DNA from: a virus
Taxonomy: Duplodnaviria > Heunggongvirae > Uroviricota > Caudoviricetes
Length of the DNA: 37,524 nt
Reading direction: 5' to 3' (one strand)
IMG/VR virus record: IMGVR_UViG_2718217884_000001
Location: 1-37,524 of that record
Of this stretch, positions 2,458-11,805 are shown piece by piece. A program made the position numbers and the translations under genes. The notes under the pieces are model-generated. The model was not told where the DNA came from. It did not search any database and worked only from the letters and a program-made list of their open reading frames with translations. Numbering within the stretch: position 1 is the first letter of the stretch; each line of letters starts with the position of its first letter.

Positions 2458-3483
2458 TTAACGGTTCCAGTTGAGATTGTGAAGCGGGTTTTTTGTCACT
2501 GCATCTTCCAGGTGGTCGGGTGCGAAGTGGGCGTAAATCATTGTCATTTTAATATCGGCGTGGCCCAGAATATCGCGCAGTACCAGTATATTTCCGCCGT
2601 TCATCATAAAATGACTGGCGAAAGTATGGCGCAGAACGTGGGTGCATTGGCCCTCTGGCAAGTCAATGCTTGCCCGCTTGACTGCACGCTCAAAGGCTTT
2701 TCTGCATGGCGTGAATAACTTCCCTCGGTTCTTTGGTAACTCGTCATACAGCGCCTGAGATATAGGAACCGTTCGGTTTTTCTTGCCCTTTGTTTTGGTG
2801 TAGGTGATTCGGTATTTAGATAACTGATGGCCCTGCAGGTTTTCGGCTTCACTCCAGCGGGCGCCGGTAGCTAAGCAGATTTTTGCAATCATGAGCAGGC
2901 TGGGGTTTTCTGAATCAGCGCAGGCATCCAGCAGGCGTTTAATTTCTTCCGGCGCCAGGAACGCCAGTTCCCCCTCTGCGATTTTAAATGTTGGAAGCCC
3001 GGCGAGTGGGTTGGGGGCTGACCAGTGGCCCAGCTTTTTCAGCGTGCCAAAAACTGATGATAGGTTGCGTTGTTCAAGGTTTACCGTGCGGGGCTTAACT
3101 GGCGACATAGGCAAGCCATCTTCATTTTTGACTTCACCTTTTAGGCGTGCTTCACGGTATTTTGTAAAGTCACCGGCAGTCAGCTCCGAGGCAATGGGAT
3201 CACCCAGGCCATTACAAATAATGTTAAGTTTTGCCATCAGGCGCTTGGGGTCAGCAAGAGTCTGTCCGTAAAGTGAATGCCACTGCTTAATTACTTCTGA
3301 CAATTGGCGCCGATCATCCTTTTCGCCTAGCCATGGCTTTTTGTTCACTTCATCCATTGTGAAGTTTTCGAATGCTATGGCCTCGCCTTTCGTCGCAAAT
3401 TGCTTGCGCACGCGCTTGCCATCGCGCCCGCTAGGGTAGCACTCACACAACCATTTCCCGTTTGGCTGTTTTCTGATGGTCAT
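2458..3483 (-). CDS. int: Phage integrase (tyrosine recombinase, P2/186 Int family)
   Basis: 341 aa; C-terminal motifs HVLRHTFAS and MIYAHF (catalytic His/Arg/Tyr region); adjacent to attL; followed by GTGCCGCC direct repeats. Confidence 0.88.
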   Translation of the reverse strand: MTIRKQPNGKWLCECYPSGRDGKRVRKQFATKGEAIAFENFTMDEVNKKPWLGEKDDRRQLSEVIKQWHSLYGQTLADPKRLMAKLNIICNGLGDPIASELTAGDFTKYREARLKGEVKNEDGLPMSPVKPRTVNLEQRNLSSVFGTLKKLGHWSAPNPLAGLPTFKIAEGELAFLAPEEIKRLLDACADSENPSLLMIAKICLATGARWSEAENLQGHQLSKYRITYTKTKGKKNRTVPISQALYDELPKNRGKLFTPCRKAFERAVKRASIDLPEGQCTHVLRHTFASHFMMNGGNILVLRDILGHADIKMTMIYAHFAPDHLEDAVTKNPLHNLNWNR

Positions 3484-3484
3484 A

Positions 3485-4117
3485 TCAAAGGCTCTTAATA
3501 ACTTTTAAGACGTGGCCTACAACCTCGATATCATCCAGGCTGCACTCAAAAGATGATTCATCTTGATGAACTACCAATCTGTTTCCGGGGATACGGGTTA
3601 ACTTCACAATACTTTTTATTCCATCAATATCGACCAACCACACCCCATTTACTGGTGGTGTTTGGCTGCGATCCACTAGGTATGAATCACCACCGGTATT
3701 TACTAAGAGTAAGTTACTGGAATTGGAAGGAAGCAAGCTGCTGTCAATGATTGCTTTACCTGTATCCACCAAAGAGCCGCTAGAAAGTGTCACTTTGTCA
3801 ATTTCGGGAGAAACAAGGTCAGAAAGGTGTTTAACTTTGCCGGAGTTCACGAAATTGATATCTTTTTGCATGTCAATGTTTGAACCCGGCTCGCCTTGCC
3901 CTGTGGTAAGCCAGAGTAAAGAAACGCCTGTCTCAAGAGCGCACTGAATTACCCATTCTGCAGGGAAACTATCTCTTAAGTATCTGTTTGCCATGGTGCT
4001 TTTAGATGCGCCAAGATGGTCGCACAATTGCTGTCTTGATTTGAAATCGTAGGCTGCCATTAGCCTATGGATGGCCTCTCTACCCCCGGTGTTCTCGCCT
4101 GTCTTTACTTGTATCAT
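3485..4117 (-). CDS. cI: CI-like immunity repressor (N-terminal HTH, C-terminal S24-like domain)
   Basis: 210 aa, divergent from apl/cII operon, position between int and the lytic operon as in 186. Confidence 0.7.
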   Translation of the reverse strand: MIQVKTGENTGGREAIHRLMAAYDFKSRQQLCDHLGASKSTMANRYLRDSFPAEWVIQCALETGVSLLWLTTGQGEPGSNIDMQKDINFVNSGKVKHLSDLVSPEIDKVTLSSGSLVDTGKAIIDSSLLPSNSSNLLLVNTGGDSYLVDRSQTPPVNGVWLVDIDGIKSIVKLTRIPGNRLVVHQDESSFECSLDDIEVVGHVLKVIKSL

Positions 4118-6068: not shown

Positions 6069-6925
6069 GCACTATTCTGAAATGGGCGGGAAATAAAACC
6101 TCCATCATGCCGGAACTGATTAAGCATCTTCCTGCTGGCACGCGACTGGTTGAACCTTTCGCGGGTTCATGCGCTGTAATGATGGCGACAGACTATCCTC
6201 ATTATCTTGTCGCGGATATTAACCCAGACCTGATAAATCTTTTTAAGCATATTGCATTTGACTGCGAGAAATTTATTTCAAATTCAAAAGGATTCTTTTC
6301 AGGCACAAATAGCGCTGAGTCTTATTACAACATCCGTCAGGATTTTAATCATTCGGCTGAAACCACCGATTTCTGGAAAGCTGTATTTTTCCTTTATCTT
6401 AATCGCCATGGTTATCGTGGGTTGTGCCGCTATAATTTGAGCGGTCATTTTAATGTCCCTTACGGTAATTATAAAAATCCGTATTTTCCTGAAAGTGAAA
6501 TACGCGCTTTTGCAGAAAAGGCTCAACGCGCAACGTTTATCTGTGCCAGCTATGACGAAACACTGGCGCTGCTGCAGGCTGGTGATGTTGTTTATTGTGA
6601 TCCGCCATACGATGGCACATTTAGCGGTTATCACACTGCCGGTTTTACAGAAGACGATCAGTATCATCTGGCGTCTATTCTTGAGCGCCGGTCATCAGAA
6701 GGTCATCCGGTTATCGTGTCCAACAGCGACACGTCCCTGACCCGTTCGCTTTATCGTAATTTTACCCGCCATCGCATCACTGCAAAGCGCAGCATGGGTG
6801 TGGCTGCCGGCGAGAGTAAATCTGCAGCAGAAATCATCGCCACAAAATCAGCTGGCTGGTTTGGTGTCGATTTGGCGTCCGGTCCAGATATCTCGGTGGA
6901 AACTGAGGTGCGGGCGTGGCAGTGA
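6065..6925 (+). CDS. dam: DNA adenine methyltransferase (Dam family, N6-A MTase)
   Basis: [23 protein letters not shown]...FAGSCAVMM (AdoMet motif) and DPPY catalytic motif; ATGA overlap with upstream gene. Confidence 0.85.
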
Positions 6926-9324
6926 GTAAATTCACATTACATAATGCACCAACCACCGGCGGCTCGAATGAGGCCGCCGTGGCCTTTTCATGGAATAACC
7001 CCAAAAAAGCGGTTAACCCATATCTGGACCCGGCGGAAGTTGCGCCGGGGTCTGCGCTTTCAAACCTGATTGCTCTTTACGCTGCGGATAACGAGCAGGA
7101 GCAGCTGCGCCGTGAGGCGCTGAGCGATGAGGTCTGGGAACGCTATTTCTTCAATGAATCCCGTGATCCTGTCCAGCGCGAAATGGAGCAGGACCGGCTG
7201 ATTAGTCGTGCCAAAATGGCGCGCGAGCAGCAGCGTTTTAATCCCGATCTGGTCATTCTGGCTGACGTTAACGCCATGCCGTCCCATATCAGCAAGCCTC
7301 TGCTGGAGCGGATTAAATATTTCCATAGCCTGGGCAGAGCAAAAGCCTATTCCCGCTACCTGCGCGAAACAATTAGGCCCTGTCTTGAGCGGCTGGAGCG
7401 CGTGCGTGACAGTCAGGTGTCTGCCTCTTTCCGGTTCATGGCAAGTCATGACGGGCTGGAGGGGCTGCTGGTACTGCCTGAAATGAATCAGGATCAGGTC
7501 AAGCGTCTTTCCACGCTGGTTGCGGCTCATATGAGCATGTGTCTTGATGCGGCCTGCGGTGATCTGTTTGTCAGCGACGATGTTAAACCAGAAGAAATCC
7601 GCCAGGCATGGGAAAGGGTTGCAGCAGAGGCGATGCGCCTTGAGATCATCCCGCCTGCGTTTGAGCAGTTACGCCGCAAAAAGCGTCGACGCAAGCCGGT
7701 GCCCTATGAACTGATCCCACCGTCGCTGGCGCGGATGCTGTGCGCGGACTGGTGGTATCGCAAATTGTGGCAGATGCGCTGCGAGTGGCGGGAGGAACAG
7801 CTGCGTGCTGTCTGCCTGGTCAACAAAAAAGCGTCCCCGTATGTCAGCTATGAAGCCGTGATCCACAAGCGCGAGCAGCGCCGCAAATCGCTGGAGTTCT
7901 TCCGCTCACATGAGCTGGTCAACGAAGACGGTGACACGCTGGACATGGAAGACGTGGTGAACGCCAGTAACAGCAACCCGGCACACCGCCGTAATGAAAT
8001 GATGGCCTGTGTTAAGGGACTGGAGCTGATAGCGGAAATGCGCGGAGACTGCGCAGTGTTCTATACCATCACCTGCCCGTCACGCTTCCACGCAACCCTC
8101 AACAACGGCAGACCTAATCCGAAGTGGACCAGTGCCACAGTCCGGCAGAGCAGTGACTATCTGGTTGATACGTTCGCCGCTTTCCGCAAGGCAATGCACA
8201 AGGCCGGGCTGCGCTGGTATGGCGTCCGCGTTGCGGAGCCGCACCATGACGGCACAGTGCACTGGCATCTGTTGTGCTTCATGCGCAAAAAAGACCGCCG
8301 TTTCATCACTGCGATGCTGCGCAAGTTTGCCATCCGTGAAGACCGCGAGGAGCTGGGCACCAACACCGGGCCGCGCTTCAAATCCGAGCTAATCAACCCG
8401 CGCAAGGGCACGCCGACCAGCTACATCGCCAAATACATCAGCAAGAACATCGACGGGCGTGGGCTGGCTAAAGAAATCAGCAAAGAAACCGGCAGATCGC
8501 TGCGTGACAGTGCCGAGCATGTCAGCGCCTGGGCGTCACTGCACCGTGTCCAGCAATTTCGTTTCTTTGGTATTCCAGGGCGTCAGGCATACCGCGAGCT
8601 GCGCTTGCTGGCTGGTCAGGTGGCGAGAGTGCAGGGCGAACGCAAAGCGGGTGCGCCGGTACTGGATAATCCGCGTCTGGATGCGGTACTGGCGGCGGCT
8701 GATGCGGGCTGCTTTGCCACCTACATCATGAAGCAGGGCGGCGTGCTGGTTCCCCGCAAACATCACCTTGTCCGCACGGCTTATGAGCTTAACGACGAAC
8801 CGAGCGCCTACGGCGATCACGGTATCCGTATCTATGGCATCTGGTCCCCGATTGCAGAGGGCAAGATTTGCACGCACGCGGTGAAGTGGAAAAAGGTTCG
8901 TAAGGCCGTTGATGTTCAGGAGGCGGCAGCCGACCAGGGCGCTTGCGCCCCTTGGACTCGTGGCAATAACTGTCCCCCTGTTGAAAATCTGAACAAATCA
9001 GGGGGGGATTTACCCGATATTAAAACTATGGATGAGAGGGAGCTGCAGGAATATCTCCACAACATGGGCCAGAAGGAACGGCGGGAGCTGACAGCCAGGT
9101 TAAGGCTGGTAAAACCGAAGCGGAAAAAAGCATATAAACAGACTATTTCGGATCAGCAGCGCCTGCAGCTTGAGGCAGAACTGAGTTCCAGAGGGTTCGA
9201 TGGTAGCGAGTCAGAGATTGACCTGCTTCTGCGCGGCGGCAGTATTCCGTCAGGTGCCGGGCTGCGTATTTTTTACCGCAACCACCGTCTGCAGGAAGAT
9301 GACAAATGGCGTCAGTGGTACTGA
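6916..9324 (+). CDS. A: Replication initiation endonuclease (P2 gpA family, rolling circle)
   Basis: 802 aa, GTG start overlapping dam stop; contains conserved segment around HxH and tyrosine-containing YIAKYISK characteristic of gpA. Confidence 0.88.
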
Positions 9325-9420
9325 TGCCGCAGCTTTAACAATTCTTGCTCTTATTGATCCGCATCAGAGCGATCTAATTGACAGATAAAAAACGGTTTAC
9401 ATTCGCAAATTCCTACTATA

Positions 9421-9436
9421 CTGTAATTATAAACAG
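9421..9436 (+). promoter_or_regulatory. LexA (SOS) box overlapping promoter -10
   Basis: CTGTAATTATAAACAG is a perfect CTGT-N8-ACAG; -35 TTTACA (9396..9401) and -10 TATACT (9417..9422); a second degenerate half-box at 9437..9452. Confidence 0.7.
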
Positions 9437-9485
9437 TGGATATATATACAGTTGTTGTATATCCGAGGTGGTGATAGGAGGGAAA

Positions 9486-9674
9486 ATGCAGGATTATCTT
9501 TTGGAGTCGTTGAAGCTCCAGCGCATTGATTTTTTTATCAAGCTTGTAGCGGCTAGTGAGTGTAGCGACGAAGAAAAGCGGCTGGCTATCCAGTGGGTGT
9601 CCGAACTGACCGACGAGCTGATGGCGAAAATCCGCAGCCATGAATACTGCCGGTCAATGGATGTAACCAGTTAA
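9486..9674 (+). CDS. Small SOS-controlled protein (candidate antirepressor, Tum-position)
   Basis: 62 aa from ATG 9486 with GGAGGG RBS; directly downstream of LexA box; the longer 9378 start would precede the promoter. Confidence 0.5.
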   Translation: MQDYLLESLKLQRIDFFIKLVAASECSDEEKRLAIQWVSELTDELMAKIRSHEYCRSMDVTS

Positions 9675-9685
9675 GGGGAATCTGT

Positions 9686-9919
9686 ATGCGCATTGAAATA
9701 ATGATCGATAAAGAGCAGAAGATTAGCCAGGCTACACTGGACGCCCTTGAATCCGAGCTTTACCGTAATTTGCGCCCTCTGTATCCCAAAACAGCAATTC
9801 GTATCCGTAAGGGCAGCGCCAACGGCGTTGAGCTGAGCGGGTTAAAACTGGATGAAGATAAAAAGCGAGTGATGGAAATAATGCAGCAGGTCTGGGAGGA
9901 CGACAGCTGGTTACATTAG
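9686..9919 (+). CDS. DinI-family protein
   Basis: 77 aa; MRIEIMIDKEQKISQATLDALESELYRNLRPLYP...EIMQQVWEDDSWL aligns with DinI by eye. Confidence 0.75.
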   Translation: MRIEIMIDKEQKISQATLDALESELYRNLRPLYPKTAIRIRKGSANGVELSGLKLDEDKKRVMEIMQQVWEDDSWLH

Positions 9920-10052
9920 CGAACGTTGCGGACGATAAAACTGGTTTTTACCGTCCGCAAGGTTGAACAACGAGCCACGCGAGGCGTTAGCGCTGTTGTG
10001 CATGTCTATGCCGCATGAAATCGCATGATCGTTTGAGGATCGTTTTTGCTCA

Positions 10053-10078
10053 GGCCCGCCAGAACTGGCGGGCTTTTG
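10053..10078 (+). terminator. Rho-independent terminator after SOS operon
   Basis: GCCCGCCAG-AACT-GGCGGGC hairpin followed by TTTTGCTT. Confidence 0.55.
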
Positions 10079-10122
10079 CTTATGTCATGCAGGTGCATGA
10101 AAACCACTACACAAAGCGGGCA

Positions 10123-10141
10123 GGCGTGGCGGGGATACGAG
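10123..10141. other. Candidate cos (cohesive end) site
   Basis: GGCGTGGCGGGGATACGAG; first 13 nt identical to my recollection of the 186 cohesive end GGCGTGGCGGGGAAAGCAT; position near Q 3' end. Confidence 0.35.
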
Positions 10142-10240
10142 CGCGCGCTGGTTGGTTTGGGACAGCTTTCAAGAGCTATGTCTCATTTTTGCTTGGACGG
10201 ATAGATTACTCTACTCAAAACATGTGAAATGGAGATAAAC

Positions 10241-10423
10241 ATGCCGTATCAAGTTAAAGCTTATTGTCCTTGTTGTGGGGTCGCTGCAAGTGGTGATCTG
10301 AACAAAATTGAAGAGGTATTTGGTTTTAGAATGATGGAAGGGGAACGTTTGATTCCACAATCATATTGTCGCAGATGTCGTCGATTAAGATGTTCTCCAA
10401 ATGATAAAAAGTGCGGAGCATAA
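10241..10423 (+). CDS. Cys-rich zinc-ribbon protein, unknown function
   Basis: 60 aa from ATG 10241 (GGAG 6 nt upstream); CPCCG...CRRCRRLRC; AT-rich codons; 3-nt gap to next gene. Confidence 0.55.
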   Translation: MPYQVKAYCPCCGVAASGDLNKIEEVFGFRMMEGERLIPQSYCRRCRRLRCSPNDKKCGA

Positions 10424-10426
10424 AAG

Positions 10427-10696
10427 ATGGCGGTCTATTGTGTAACGTATGACTTGAAAGCTCCAGGCAAGAACTATGATGATGTTTTTACCTATCTCAA
10501 AAAGTTTGACTACTGCAAACATTTAGAATCCTTTTGGTTAATCGATACCACGCTTTCTGCAGCGCAATTGCGTGATGGACTTAAAGCAAATGTTGATAGT
10601 AACGATGTGATCTTTGTTGCTCGTTTACAAAAATCTTGGGCCTCATTAAATTATTCTTGTTCTACATGGTTAAAGGCTCCTGGTCGAAATTGGTAA
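10427..10696 (+). CDS. 89-aa protein of unknown function, co-operonic with zinc-ribbon ORF
   Basis: GGAG RBS; N-terminal beta-strand-like VYCVTYDL; AT-rich; followed by terminator hairpin. Confidence 0.55.
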   Translation: MAVYCVTYDLKAPGKNYDDVFTYLKKFDYCKHLESFWLIDTTLSAAQLRDGLKANVDSNDVIFVARLQKSWASLNYSCSTWLKAPGRNW

Positions 10697-10703
10697 ATAA
10701 ATT

Positions 10704-10730
10704 AAGGCCGCATGATTAGCGGCCTGTTTG
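10704..10730. terminator. Bidirectional terminator hairpin between small cassette and Q
   Basis: GGCCGC-ATGATTA-GCGGCC with T-rich tracts on both strands. Confidence 0.5.
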
Positions 10731-10758
10731 AATATTGTTGTTGATGAGTAGGTGATTA

Positions 10759-11805
10759 CTATTCATCACCTAAATTTAACTTGTAGGGTTCAAAGCGTAT
10801 TACATCTTCTTGTAACCAATCATTGAGTTCTTGCAGCCTTTTTTGGAGGGGGATTAGTTCGTTTCTTACAAAAACAAGGCTGGCCTTTTCCACATCCCCA
10901 AAACCCCCAACATTGCTTGGCATGATCCCCATCATCTGTGGCGGCACACGGTGCGCTGCCATCATGTCATCGCGGCTCACGTTCTTGATGTTCAGAAACT
11001 CATCCTTTGCTGCTACCTCTGATAGTGGGATTATCTGAATGCCGTCCTTCTTCCCGTTGGGCGAATACATAAACAGGTTGCGGAAGTTGCCTGGCCCTTT
11101 GGCGCTTTTCATGGCCTGGCGGATGTTGTTCACGTCCTCCTGGTTCTGCGCGGCGTCGGTCATGTACATGATAAAGCCCGCGTGGCTGCCGTTGATGTAG
11201 TACTTGCGGCGGAACAGCGTGGCGGACTCATTCAGAAGGGCGGAAGGGATAGCGGACAGGTATTCTGGTAGTCCATAAATCTCCTGGTTTAAGTCCGGCT
11301 CCATCAGGTGGAAGATGCTGCCTTTGGTGAACTCGTAGGGCTGCGTGGTCATGCCGTATTGCACAAACCAGTAAGTGTCGAGGTCGGTCCCGCGGCGGGT
11401 GTATTTCGCCAGCGATGGCTCCAGTGACAGAATGCCGCCCAGCCGGTTCGTCCGTTTCTCCAGATAGGCATTACCAAACACCAGGTAGTCCTGCACGAAG
11501 CGGCTGAATGCCTGCTGGCTCAGCAGCGGATGCGGGATAAACGTGCTGGTCAGGATGTTGCGCTTAACGGCAATCGGTGAGCTGTGATGCACGGCGGCGC
11601 GGTAGGTGCGAGCCAGGCCGTCAAAGCTCACGGGCGGCTCATACCATTTGTCCATCTGCACGCATTCCACATAGTCCAGCAGTTCGCGGCGGTCCAGTAC
11701 CGGGATAGGATCGCCAAAGCTGAATGCTTCGGCTTGAGTTGTGTTCTTCTGCTGCGCGGCTTCCTGTACTGGCGCGGTACTGGTCAGGGCGTCGTGTTCA
11801 CTCAT
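10759..11805 (-). CDS. Q: Portal protein (P2 gpQ)
   Basis: 348 aa; position and size match P2 Q; start overlaps P stop. Confidence 0.88.
   Translation of the reverse strand: MSEHDALTSTAPVQEAAQQKNTTQAEAFSFGDPIPVLDRRELLDYVECVQMDKWYEPPVSFDGLARTYRAAVHHSSPIAVKRNILTSTFIPHPLLSQQAFSRFVQDYLVFGNAYLEKRTNRLGGILSLEPSLAKYTRRGTDLDTYWFVQYGMTTQPYEFTKGSIFHLMEPDLNQEIYGLPEYLSAIPSALLNESATLFRRKYYINGSHAGFIMYMTDAAQNQEDVNNIRQAMKSAKGPGNFRNLFMYSPNGKKDGIQIIPLSEVAAKDEFLNIKNVSRDDMMAAHRVPPQMMGIMPSNVGGFGDVEKASLVFVRNELIPLQKRLQELNDWLQEDVIRFEPYKLNLGDE

Follow-up and report, generated by a model that had tools for sequence, protein, structure and literature searches.

A probable SOS-induction operon with a split tum locus in a P2-like prophage of the Fels-2/SopEPhi type

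Directly after its replication gene A, the stretch of viral DNA which we analysed (37,524 nucleotides, called the window in the following) carries an operon on the + strand (9396-10081) whose likely promoter is overlapped by LexA sites. We regard this region, with a probability of about 0.9, as the SOS-induction operon of a P2-like prophage of the Fels-2/SopEPhi type with a split tum locus. In phage 186, Tum is a single protein of 146 aa which combines an N-terminal antirepressor half with a DinI-like C-terminal half. In the window a 62-aa protein, named TumA here, stands for the first of these halves, and a DinI-like protein, named TumB, for the second. A DNA-damage switch of the tum type is already known from 186, PSP3, Fels-2 and the E. 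coli HS prophage DuoHS, and the finding, while correct, is in this sense an ordinary one.

Results

Position of the operon within the prophage

The window represents a P2/186-like prophage, and its CI protein matches by sequence the protein of the solved 186 CI structure (2FJR, E 3.5e-26). The order of the genes int, cI, apl and cII is of the 186 type. On the - strand int occupies 2458-3483, and it is followed on the same strand by the gene for the CI immunity repressor (3485..4117, 210 aa), the presumed target of TumA. The apl, cII and Dam-like methylase genes lie in this order between cI and gene A (6916-9324), and the portal and terminase genes are found from 10759 onward. The SOS operon is thereby located between gene A and cos, directly after the former, and is the final operon ahead of the right cos end, which is the place of tum in 186. 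A preliminary description, made from the sequence of the window, had assigned the interval to the 186 tum position, and the comparison with the 186 record bears this out.

Apart from the place of the operon behind gene A and close to the right end at cos, the window shares with 186 a LexA site which starts at the -10 and a repressor of the same CI family. The two differ in that both Tum halves form one polypeptide in 186, where internal starts also give DinI-like fragments, and in that 186 has a single LexA box, an orf97 downstream and a CI with a different N-terminal-domain family. PSP3 is organized more like the window, as it has tumA and tumB as individual genes at the corresponding place, the antirepressor half again preceding the DinI-like one. 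However, PSP3 TumA (60 aa) is a barely recognisable relative, there is only one LexA box in PSP3, and its CI is of another type. The PSP3 record describes tumA as 'similar to 5' end 186 tum; UV induction of prophage', and the Fels-2 record in turn refers to PSP3 TumB.

The same operon as in the window is present in Fels-2 and in SopEPhi. In Fels-2 the first gene, STM2728, encodes a protein 87% identical to the 62-aa protein of the window, and STM2726.1 is the second gene; the corresponding genes of SopEPhi are orf10, whose product is 100% identical, and orf11. The CI of Fels-2 is 58% identical to that of the window. Both phages carry cargo genes in a slot behind the operon, which is empty in the window.

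Promoter and tandem LexA operator

The CTGT-N8-ACAG LexA box on which the preliminary description was built is present at 9421-9436 (CTGTAATTATAAACAG), and the pattern as such has three matches in the window compared with 0.5 expected. It had been suggested to score the site with a weight matrix. Using an approximate matrix made of 23 operators known from E. coli, the 20-mer at 9419-9438 reaches 21.9 bits and is the top site of the 37.5-kb window. The second-best site (9434-9453, 19.2 bits) adjoins it, the third-best has 13.1 bits, and the maximum in shuffled windows is 12.1 +/- 2.8 bits. The single box noticed before is one member of a tandem pair. A third CTGT-N8-ACAG match, located inside the dinI-like gene (9779-9794), scores 6.9 bits only and was treated as chance.

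Box 1 (9419..9438, + strand, core CTGT-N8-ACAG) is kept in the relatives as well as in 186 and PSP3. In box 2 (9434..9453, + strand) the core at 9436-9451 is GTGG-N8-ACAG (GTGGATATATATACAG), in which G replaces the near-invariant C of CTG. The two cores are offset by 15 nt and overlap by one base, G9436, an arrangement that corresponds to the colicin-type double SOS box. Of 97 distinct upstream regions of the window's tumA type, 80 have such a tandem pair with 15-nt offset, and Fels-2, SopEPhi and E. coli HS have the same double-box layout. In contrast, all upstream regions of the 186 type (68/68) and of the PSP3 type (67/67) have a single LexA site, so that the double box is found in none of these 135 regions.

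With respect to the promoter, a scan for a strict consensus promoter found none. In the 186 record, the promoter p95 is given as TTCACA-N18-TACTGT, and its LexA site starts at the -10 hexamer. The corresponding candidate of the window consists of TTTACA (9396-9401), a 17-nt spacer and TACTGT (9419-9424), and the likely -10 is identical with the first six bases of box 1. An alternative -10 would be TATACT at 9417-9422 with a 15-nt spacer. The putative upstream part of the promoter (9387..9401, + strand) comprises an A-tract (9387-9392) in addition to the -35 hexamer, and the motif AAAAA..GTTTTACA upstream of the operator is kept in nearly all related loci. Therefore the earlier claim that the LexA box overlaps a promoter -10 holds for the box and its position, which match those of 186 p95, while the promoter itself is assigned by analogy, the consensus scan being negative. 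At the sequence level the two best matrix sites lie on the -10/start region; by analogy, the start point and the -10 would lie under box 1 and the first ~20 transcribed bases under box 2.

A 45-nt query taken from the Fels-2 operator matched 1088 plasmid records, 800 of which are predicted to be mobilizable. In the two records that were inspected, the match lies just upstream of a gene for a colicin-like pore-former and of a pesticin gene, respectively. The operators of these genes align with the boxes of the window almost base for base over ~33 nt, and common to both is a CTGT-N8-(A/C)CAG and a GTGG-N8-ACAG core sharing one G. They differ in what they drive, namely a bacteriocin on the one side and a predicted prophage antirepressor on the other. 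Colicin operators of this kind are reported to be bound by two LexA dimers, with undetectable basal expression (PMC2994835). Following this precedent, box 2 of the window would be occupied by LexA too, and two LexA dimers may be bound to the operator as a whole.

TumA is related to the N-terminal half of 186 Tum

The tumA gene (9486..9674, + strand) has 62 codons and begins with the ATG at 9486, so that the 62-aa ORF of the preliminary description is present with a small adjustment of its coordinates. A Shine-Dalgarno sequence AGGAGG (9476..9481, + strand) lies four bases before the ATG, and the motif ATAGGAGGGAA(A/G)ATG is kept in almost all loci. Conservation of the gene was studied in 34 loci from bacterial genomes together with phage records (38 loci in total). 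The length of 62 codons is kept in 34 of the 38 loci, the median dN/dS of 428 pairs is 0.07, and stop codons abound in both alternative reading frames. We conclude that the tumA ORF is a real gene, whose protein sequence is maintained by strong purifying selection.

No hit was obtained when the 62-aa protein was compared with 186 Tum and PSP3 TumA by pairwise BLASTP. Furthermore, Pfam, NCBIfam and PADLOC contain no meaningful family for it, PHROGs lists its family as of unknown function, and the RefSeq label is hypothetical. The blank BLASTP result and the missing family assignment would fit the reading of the preliminary description, according to which the protein, being much shorter than Tum, could be a new small antirepressor unrelated to Tum, encoded beside an independent dinI-like gene. 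We consider this very unlikely. An exhaustive HMMER search identified 58 family representatives, down to ~35% identity, and a profile built from 21 diverse members aligns over its residues 2-52 with the residues of the same numbers in 186 Tum (hhalign probability 94.7%, E 6.2e-8), this being the single profile comparison on which the homology of TumA and Tum rests. The match includes the conserved Cys and the stretch (E/D)(K/R)xLA(I/L)xW/L(I/V)(A/S)E(L/I), both in register, and intermediate family members such as P0147 resemble by eye the N-terminus of Tum. In addition, gene order, promoter and operator are as in 186, and what the second gene encodes is precisely the remaining half of Tum. Because the profile matches Tum residues 2-52 and the DinI-like protein matches Tum residues 71-145, the two ORFs can be taken as the two halves of Tum, and the shortness of the first one does not set it apart from Tum. 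What was proposed before as an SOS-induction module with the small first ORF as its antirepressor component is supported by the Tum homology and by the 186 position.

With PSP3 TumA the family gives a weak hhalign match (E 0.003, probability 10%), in which the residues next to the conserved Cys are aligned in the same register. A fusion of TumA with DinI was sought among the 58 representatives, and none was found. We also found no solved structure for the TumA/Tum N-terminal family. AlphaFold2 predicts TumA as a helical hairpin with helices at residues 2-23 and 28-61 (mean pLDDT 83.4), and in this model the conserved Cys26 is located in the loop of the hairpin.

The deletion known as delta-tum in DuoHS removes the orthologue of tumA

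The closely related gene of the E. coli HS prophage DuoHS, ECHS_RS04495 ('tum'), encodes a protein identical to the 62-aa protein of the window at 57 of 62 positions (92%) and has the same double operator. The CI of DuoHS is of a 189-aa type, and in a pairwise alignment its C-terminal domain is far more diverged from that of the window than its N-terminal domain. Induction of DuoHS by mitomycin C is abolished in a lexA(Ind-) host as well as by an in-frame 'delta-tum' deletion (PMC12055606). We mapped the delta-tum primers given in the supplement of that paper on the E. coli HS genome, where they bracket exactly ECHS_RS04495, a 62-aa 'hypothetical protein' encoded directly upstream of a DinI-like gene. 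In the respective locus of our set (L046) one primer ends on the ATG (44620-44622) and the other begins on the TGA (44806-44808). Because the delta-tum deletion and the lexA(Ind-) host block induction with this 92% identical orthologue, the genetic tests which the preliminary description had proposed have in effect been carried out. Taken from this literature on the orthologue, tumA of the window would likewise be required for SOS induction of its prophage.

TumB is a phage-type DinI-like protein

The second gene, tumB (9686..9919, + strand), encodes a protein of 77 aa, and its earlier assignment to the DinI family is confirmed by Pfam PF06183 (84.1 bits, E 8.8e-24, cut-off 24.2). TumB is 41% identical to residues 71-145 of 186 Tum (E 1e-24) and 91% identical to PSP3 TumB, and it covers positions 71-148 of the 151 positions in the DinI profile of PHROGs. 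Because it misses the cut-off of 111 for NCBIfam NF007893, the equivalog of chromosomal DinI, with a score of 51.7 bits, we regard TumB as a phage DinI-like protein and not as an orthologue of the host DinI.

The start of tumB lies 11 nt past the stop of tumA in the window, and in 22 loci the dinI-like gene is found 9-12 nt behind tumA. This close spacing makes translational coupling possible, and an in-frame deletion of the first ORF could reduce the expression of the second. Together with the statement of the 186 record that truncated, DinI-like forms of Tum 'modulate SOS induction', this could be read in favour of the DinI-like protein as the effector of induction, acting via RecA or CI, with the 62-aa ORF only as a leader or accessory peptide. 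Such a role of the two proteins is in our opinion highly improbable. About one third of the 34 genome loci lack the dinI-like gene or have a truncated copy of it. All of these loci keep tumA, full-length in all but one, and they retain its LexA operator. The strong purifying selection on the tumA protein also argues against a mere leader peptide. Moreover, the 186 record credits only full-length Tum with inhibiting the DNA binding of CI, and according to PMC3121763, tum is split by a stop codon in Fels-2 and PSP3, and it is the upstream gene of PSP3 that has antirepressor activity. With TumA as the antirepressor, TumB is probably an accessory protein which modulates RecA filament activity, and we propose that it is dispensable for the switch.

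TumA types and the N-terminal domain of CI

According to Shearwin 1998, as cited by PMC3121763 and PMC7708051, 186 Tum binds CI and prevents it from binding to its operators. By homology we infer that TumA binds CI directly as well. In the family of the window, identical or near-identical TumA proteins coexist with CI repressors which are only 33-40% identical overall. A comparison of the CI domains shows that this divergence is found mainly in the C-terminal domain. In all but one of 30 prophage loci, the identity to the CI of the window is 57-100% for residues 10-76, compared with 25-88% for residues 100-210.

This was extended to a comparison of the three Tum types with 80 loci per type sampled from viral contigs, and 244 loci with a CI were evaluated. 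For the CI N-terminal domain, the median identity of loci of one Tum type is 63-86%, and that of loci of different types is 38-43%. For the C-terminal domain, the window's tumA type has a median of 33% within the type, which is no better than the 29-30% between types, and the C-terminal domains found with this type fall into at least eight clusters. The CI of the window itself has the N-terminal-domain family that goes with its tumA type. In ~98% of the 244 loci the Tum type matches its CI N-terminal-domain family, and about five loci are off-type, for instance L018, which combines a TumA of the window's type with a 186-like CI. Because the tumA type tracks the N-terminal and not the C-terminal domain, TumA most likely contacts the N-terminal DNA-binding domain of CI, as far as co-occurrence of the sequences can indicate this. 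The reported block of operator binding by 186 Tum fits a target in this domain. However, the pairing of tumA types with CI N-terminal domains could partly be due to shared ancestry rather than to contact.

It is conceivable that TumA is SOS-induced and needed for induction but acts on Apl, CII or a host factor rather than on CI. The occurrence of near-identical TumA proteins alongside such divergent CI proteins would agree with another target, and so would the few loci in which a TumA of the window's type is paired with a CI of the 186 type and the result that within the family the divergence of TumA does not covary with that of CI on a fine scale (Mantel r about -0.1). Nevertheless we judge such a target to be unlikely, as the homologous 186 Tum is reported to bind CI in the sources named above, and TumA follows the N-terminal-domain family of CI in nearly all loci.

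With CI as the target, TumA might act as a kind of master key, which reads an N-terminal domain shared by many CI proteins with possibly different immunity. TumA is at least 85% identical across Enterobacterales. We put this idea forward tentatively and give it somewhat less than even odds.

The 3' region, terminator and cos site

The RNA fold of the region behind tumB (9920-10081) exceeds that of shuffled controls in stability (z -3.7). The region begins with a hairpin in the 3' UTR (9926-9960, + strand) with a 9-bp stem, directly behind which lies a conserved element of 30 nt (GGTTGAACAACGAGCCACGCGAGGCGTTAG, 9961-9990, + strand). Each locus, that of 186 among them, has one copy of this element with 0-6 mismatches; PSP3 has two copies. 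The variable cargo slot follows at ~9991-9995 (+ strand), and at this junction many relatives have inserts of 0.3-3.5 kb.

The terminator mentioned in the preliminary description was recovered by a scan as an intrinsic-terminator-like hairpin (10052-10075, + strand) 133 nt past the stop of the dinI-like gene, with 10 pairs, of which seven are G-C, a loop of 4 and a T-rich tail (TTTTGCTT) reaching to 10081. The hairpin lies in a block which is 91-95% conserved across the loci, and it ends 48 nt short of the phage cos site (GGCGTGGCGGGGATACGAG, 10123..10141, no strand applicable), the right end of the virion chromosome. Positions 10084-10135 of the window correspond to the right end of the 186 record and the first 13 nt of its annotated cos, and the homology with the relatives stops at ~10148. 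With the cos of 186 taken as a whole, the match extends from 10084 to 10141, by which the position of the cos site in the window was assigned.

A search of 9300-10800 against Rfam identified no RNA family; one match to a Trp leader is at chance level (E 0.37). An ORF at 10015-10227 with a match to phrog_28685 was regarded as spurious, since it spans the terminator hairpin and cos.

Discussion

From these observations and from the known systems, the following course of events can be proposed. In the lysogen, two LexA dimers on the tandem overlapping operator (9419-9453) would cover the -10 and the start of the p95-like promoter and thereby keep the operon silent. After DNA damage, active RecA would bring about the self-cleavage of LexA, and transcription of the operon would proceed up to the terminator shortly ahead of cos. 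TumA would then bind CI, which could no longer hold the lytic promoter, and the prophage would enter lytic growth. The co-transcribed TumB would be an accessory factor in this process, probably acting on the activity of the RecA filament.

Small LexA-repressed antirepressors which inactivate a non-cleavable repressor are also known from other phages, namely GfoA and GftA of the Gifsy prophages and AntC of N15 (PMC3121763). According to the same source the Gifsy operon also has a dinI homologue, but there dinI is the first gene, so that the order is reversed in comparison to the window. The Gifsy and N15 antirepressors belong to protein families unrelated to TumA, and the repressor family is different.

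The biology of the switch is established in 186, PSP3, Fels-2 and DuoHS, and the finding adds no new principle to it. Compared with the preliminary description, the minor additions are the lineage-specific double SOS box, the pairing of the tumA type with the CI N-terminal domain and a dinI-like gene which appears to be dispensable. For annotation the result has some value, as the 62-aa protein, now hypothetical in RefSeq and of unknown function in PHROGs, could be named a Tum antirepressor.

Of 5426 complete E. coli genomes, 1259 (~23%) contain the module, six of them at 100% identity. The module determines at which moment the prophages of a very common P2-like class exit from the chromosome, and SopEPhi, one of its carriers, bears a Salmonella virulence gene. 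If TumA indeed reads a domain shared by many CI proteins, the SOS pulse of one prophage of the Fels-2 type could cross-induce co-resident prophages of the same type, and, owing to the colicin-type double LexA operator, this would happen only beyond a high threshold of DNA damage. If confirmed, the lineage-specific pair of SOS boxes and the link of the tumA type to the CI N-terminal domain would provide modest leads on induction thresholds and on cross-induction between prophages.

Sequences related to LexA operators and Tum/CI pairing

A third CTGT-N8-ACAG sequence is found in the window at 9779-9794, inside the dinI-like coding sequence. With the LexA matrix it reaches only 6.9 bits, which is lower than all training sites, and it is most likely a chance match.

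Comparison of the related loci revealed rare off-type combinations, in which Tum of one type is found with a CI N-terminal domain of another, in L018 (Pantoea stewartii), L093 and L190. In L018 a TumA of the Fels-2 type, with 90% identity to TumA of the window, adjoins a 186-like CI whose N-terminal domain shares 67% identity with 186 and 36% with the window. In the cI region of PSP3 (L041), the CI frame seems to contain two tandem N-terminal helix-turn-helix-like domains followed by the C-terminal domain.

The cos site and neighbouring ORFs

The phage cos site was located at 10123-10141 (GGCGTGGCGGGGATACGAG) by its match to the joined ends of the 186 record: the 40 nt before it together with its first 13 nt correspond to the joined right and left ends. 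In related prophages the homology with the window stops at about 10148, near cos. A 70-codon ORF (10015-10227) matches phrog_28685, and some phage records annotate a gene there. Since both the terminator hairpin and cos fall within this ORF, the gene call is probably spurious and reflects conservation of a packaging region that does not encode protein.

Two small ORFs, which look like a putative moron, separate cos from the portal gene (10229-10696). One encodes a Cys-rich, zinc-ribbon-like protein of 64 aa (phrog_19700), the other a protein of 89 aa (phrog_1090) with weak Cas2-like matches (Pfam E 0.002; PADLOC Cas2b E 0.001).

Just outside the int gene of the prophage, reading of the ORF translations suggests an IS1-like element with InsA- and InsB-like ORFs (283-980) which adjoins an integrase-like ORF (1031-2128). 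This region (283-2128) may be what is left of a second element that had integrated at the attachment site.

Variable cargo genes at the SOS operon

A 107-aa ORF which is not dinI-like follows tumA in the related locus L026 (about 10290-10610), and in this relative the SOS promoter apparently drives another cargo gene instead.

In the 3' untranslated region of the operon, a hairpin precedes a conserved element of 30 nt (GGTTGAACAACGAGCCACGCGAGGCGTTAG), which lies together with its slot at 9961-9995 and is also present in the related loci L003 (3884-3913) and L004 (3595-3624 and 4000-4029). The variable cargo slot directly 3' of this element is empty in the window and comprises 0.3-3.5 kb in many relatives; in Fels-2 it harbours an orf97-like gene, and in PSP3 orf37 is located between two copies of the element. 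The 30-nt element may serve to anchor the exchange of cargo, or it may act as RNA.
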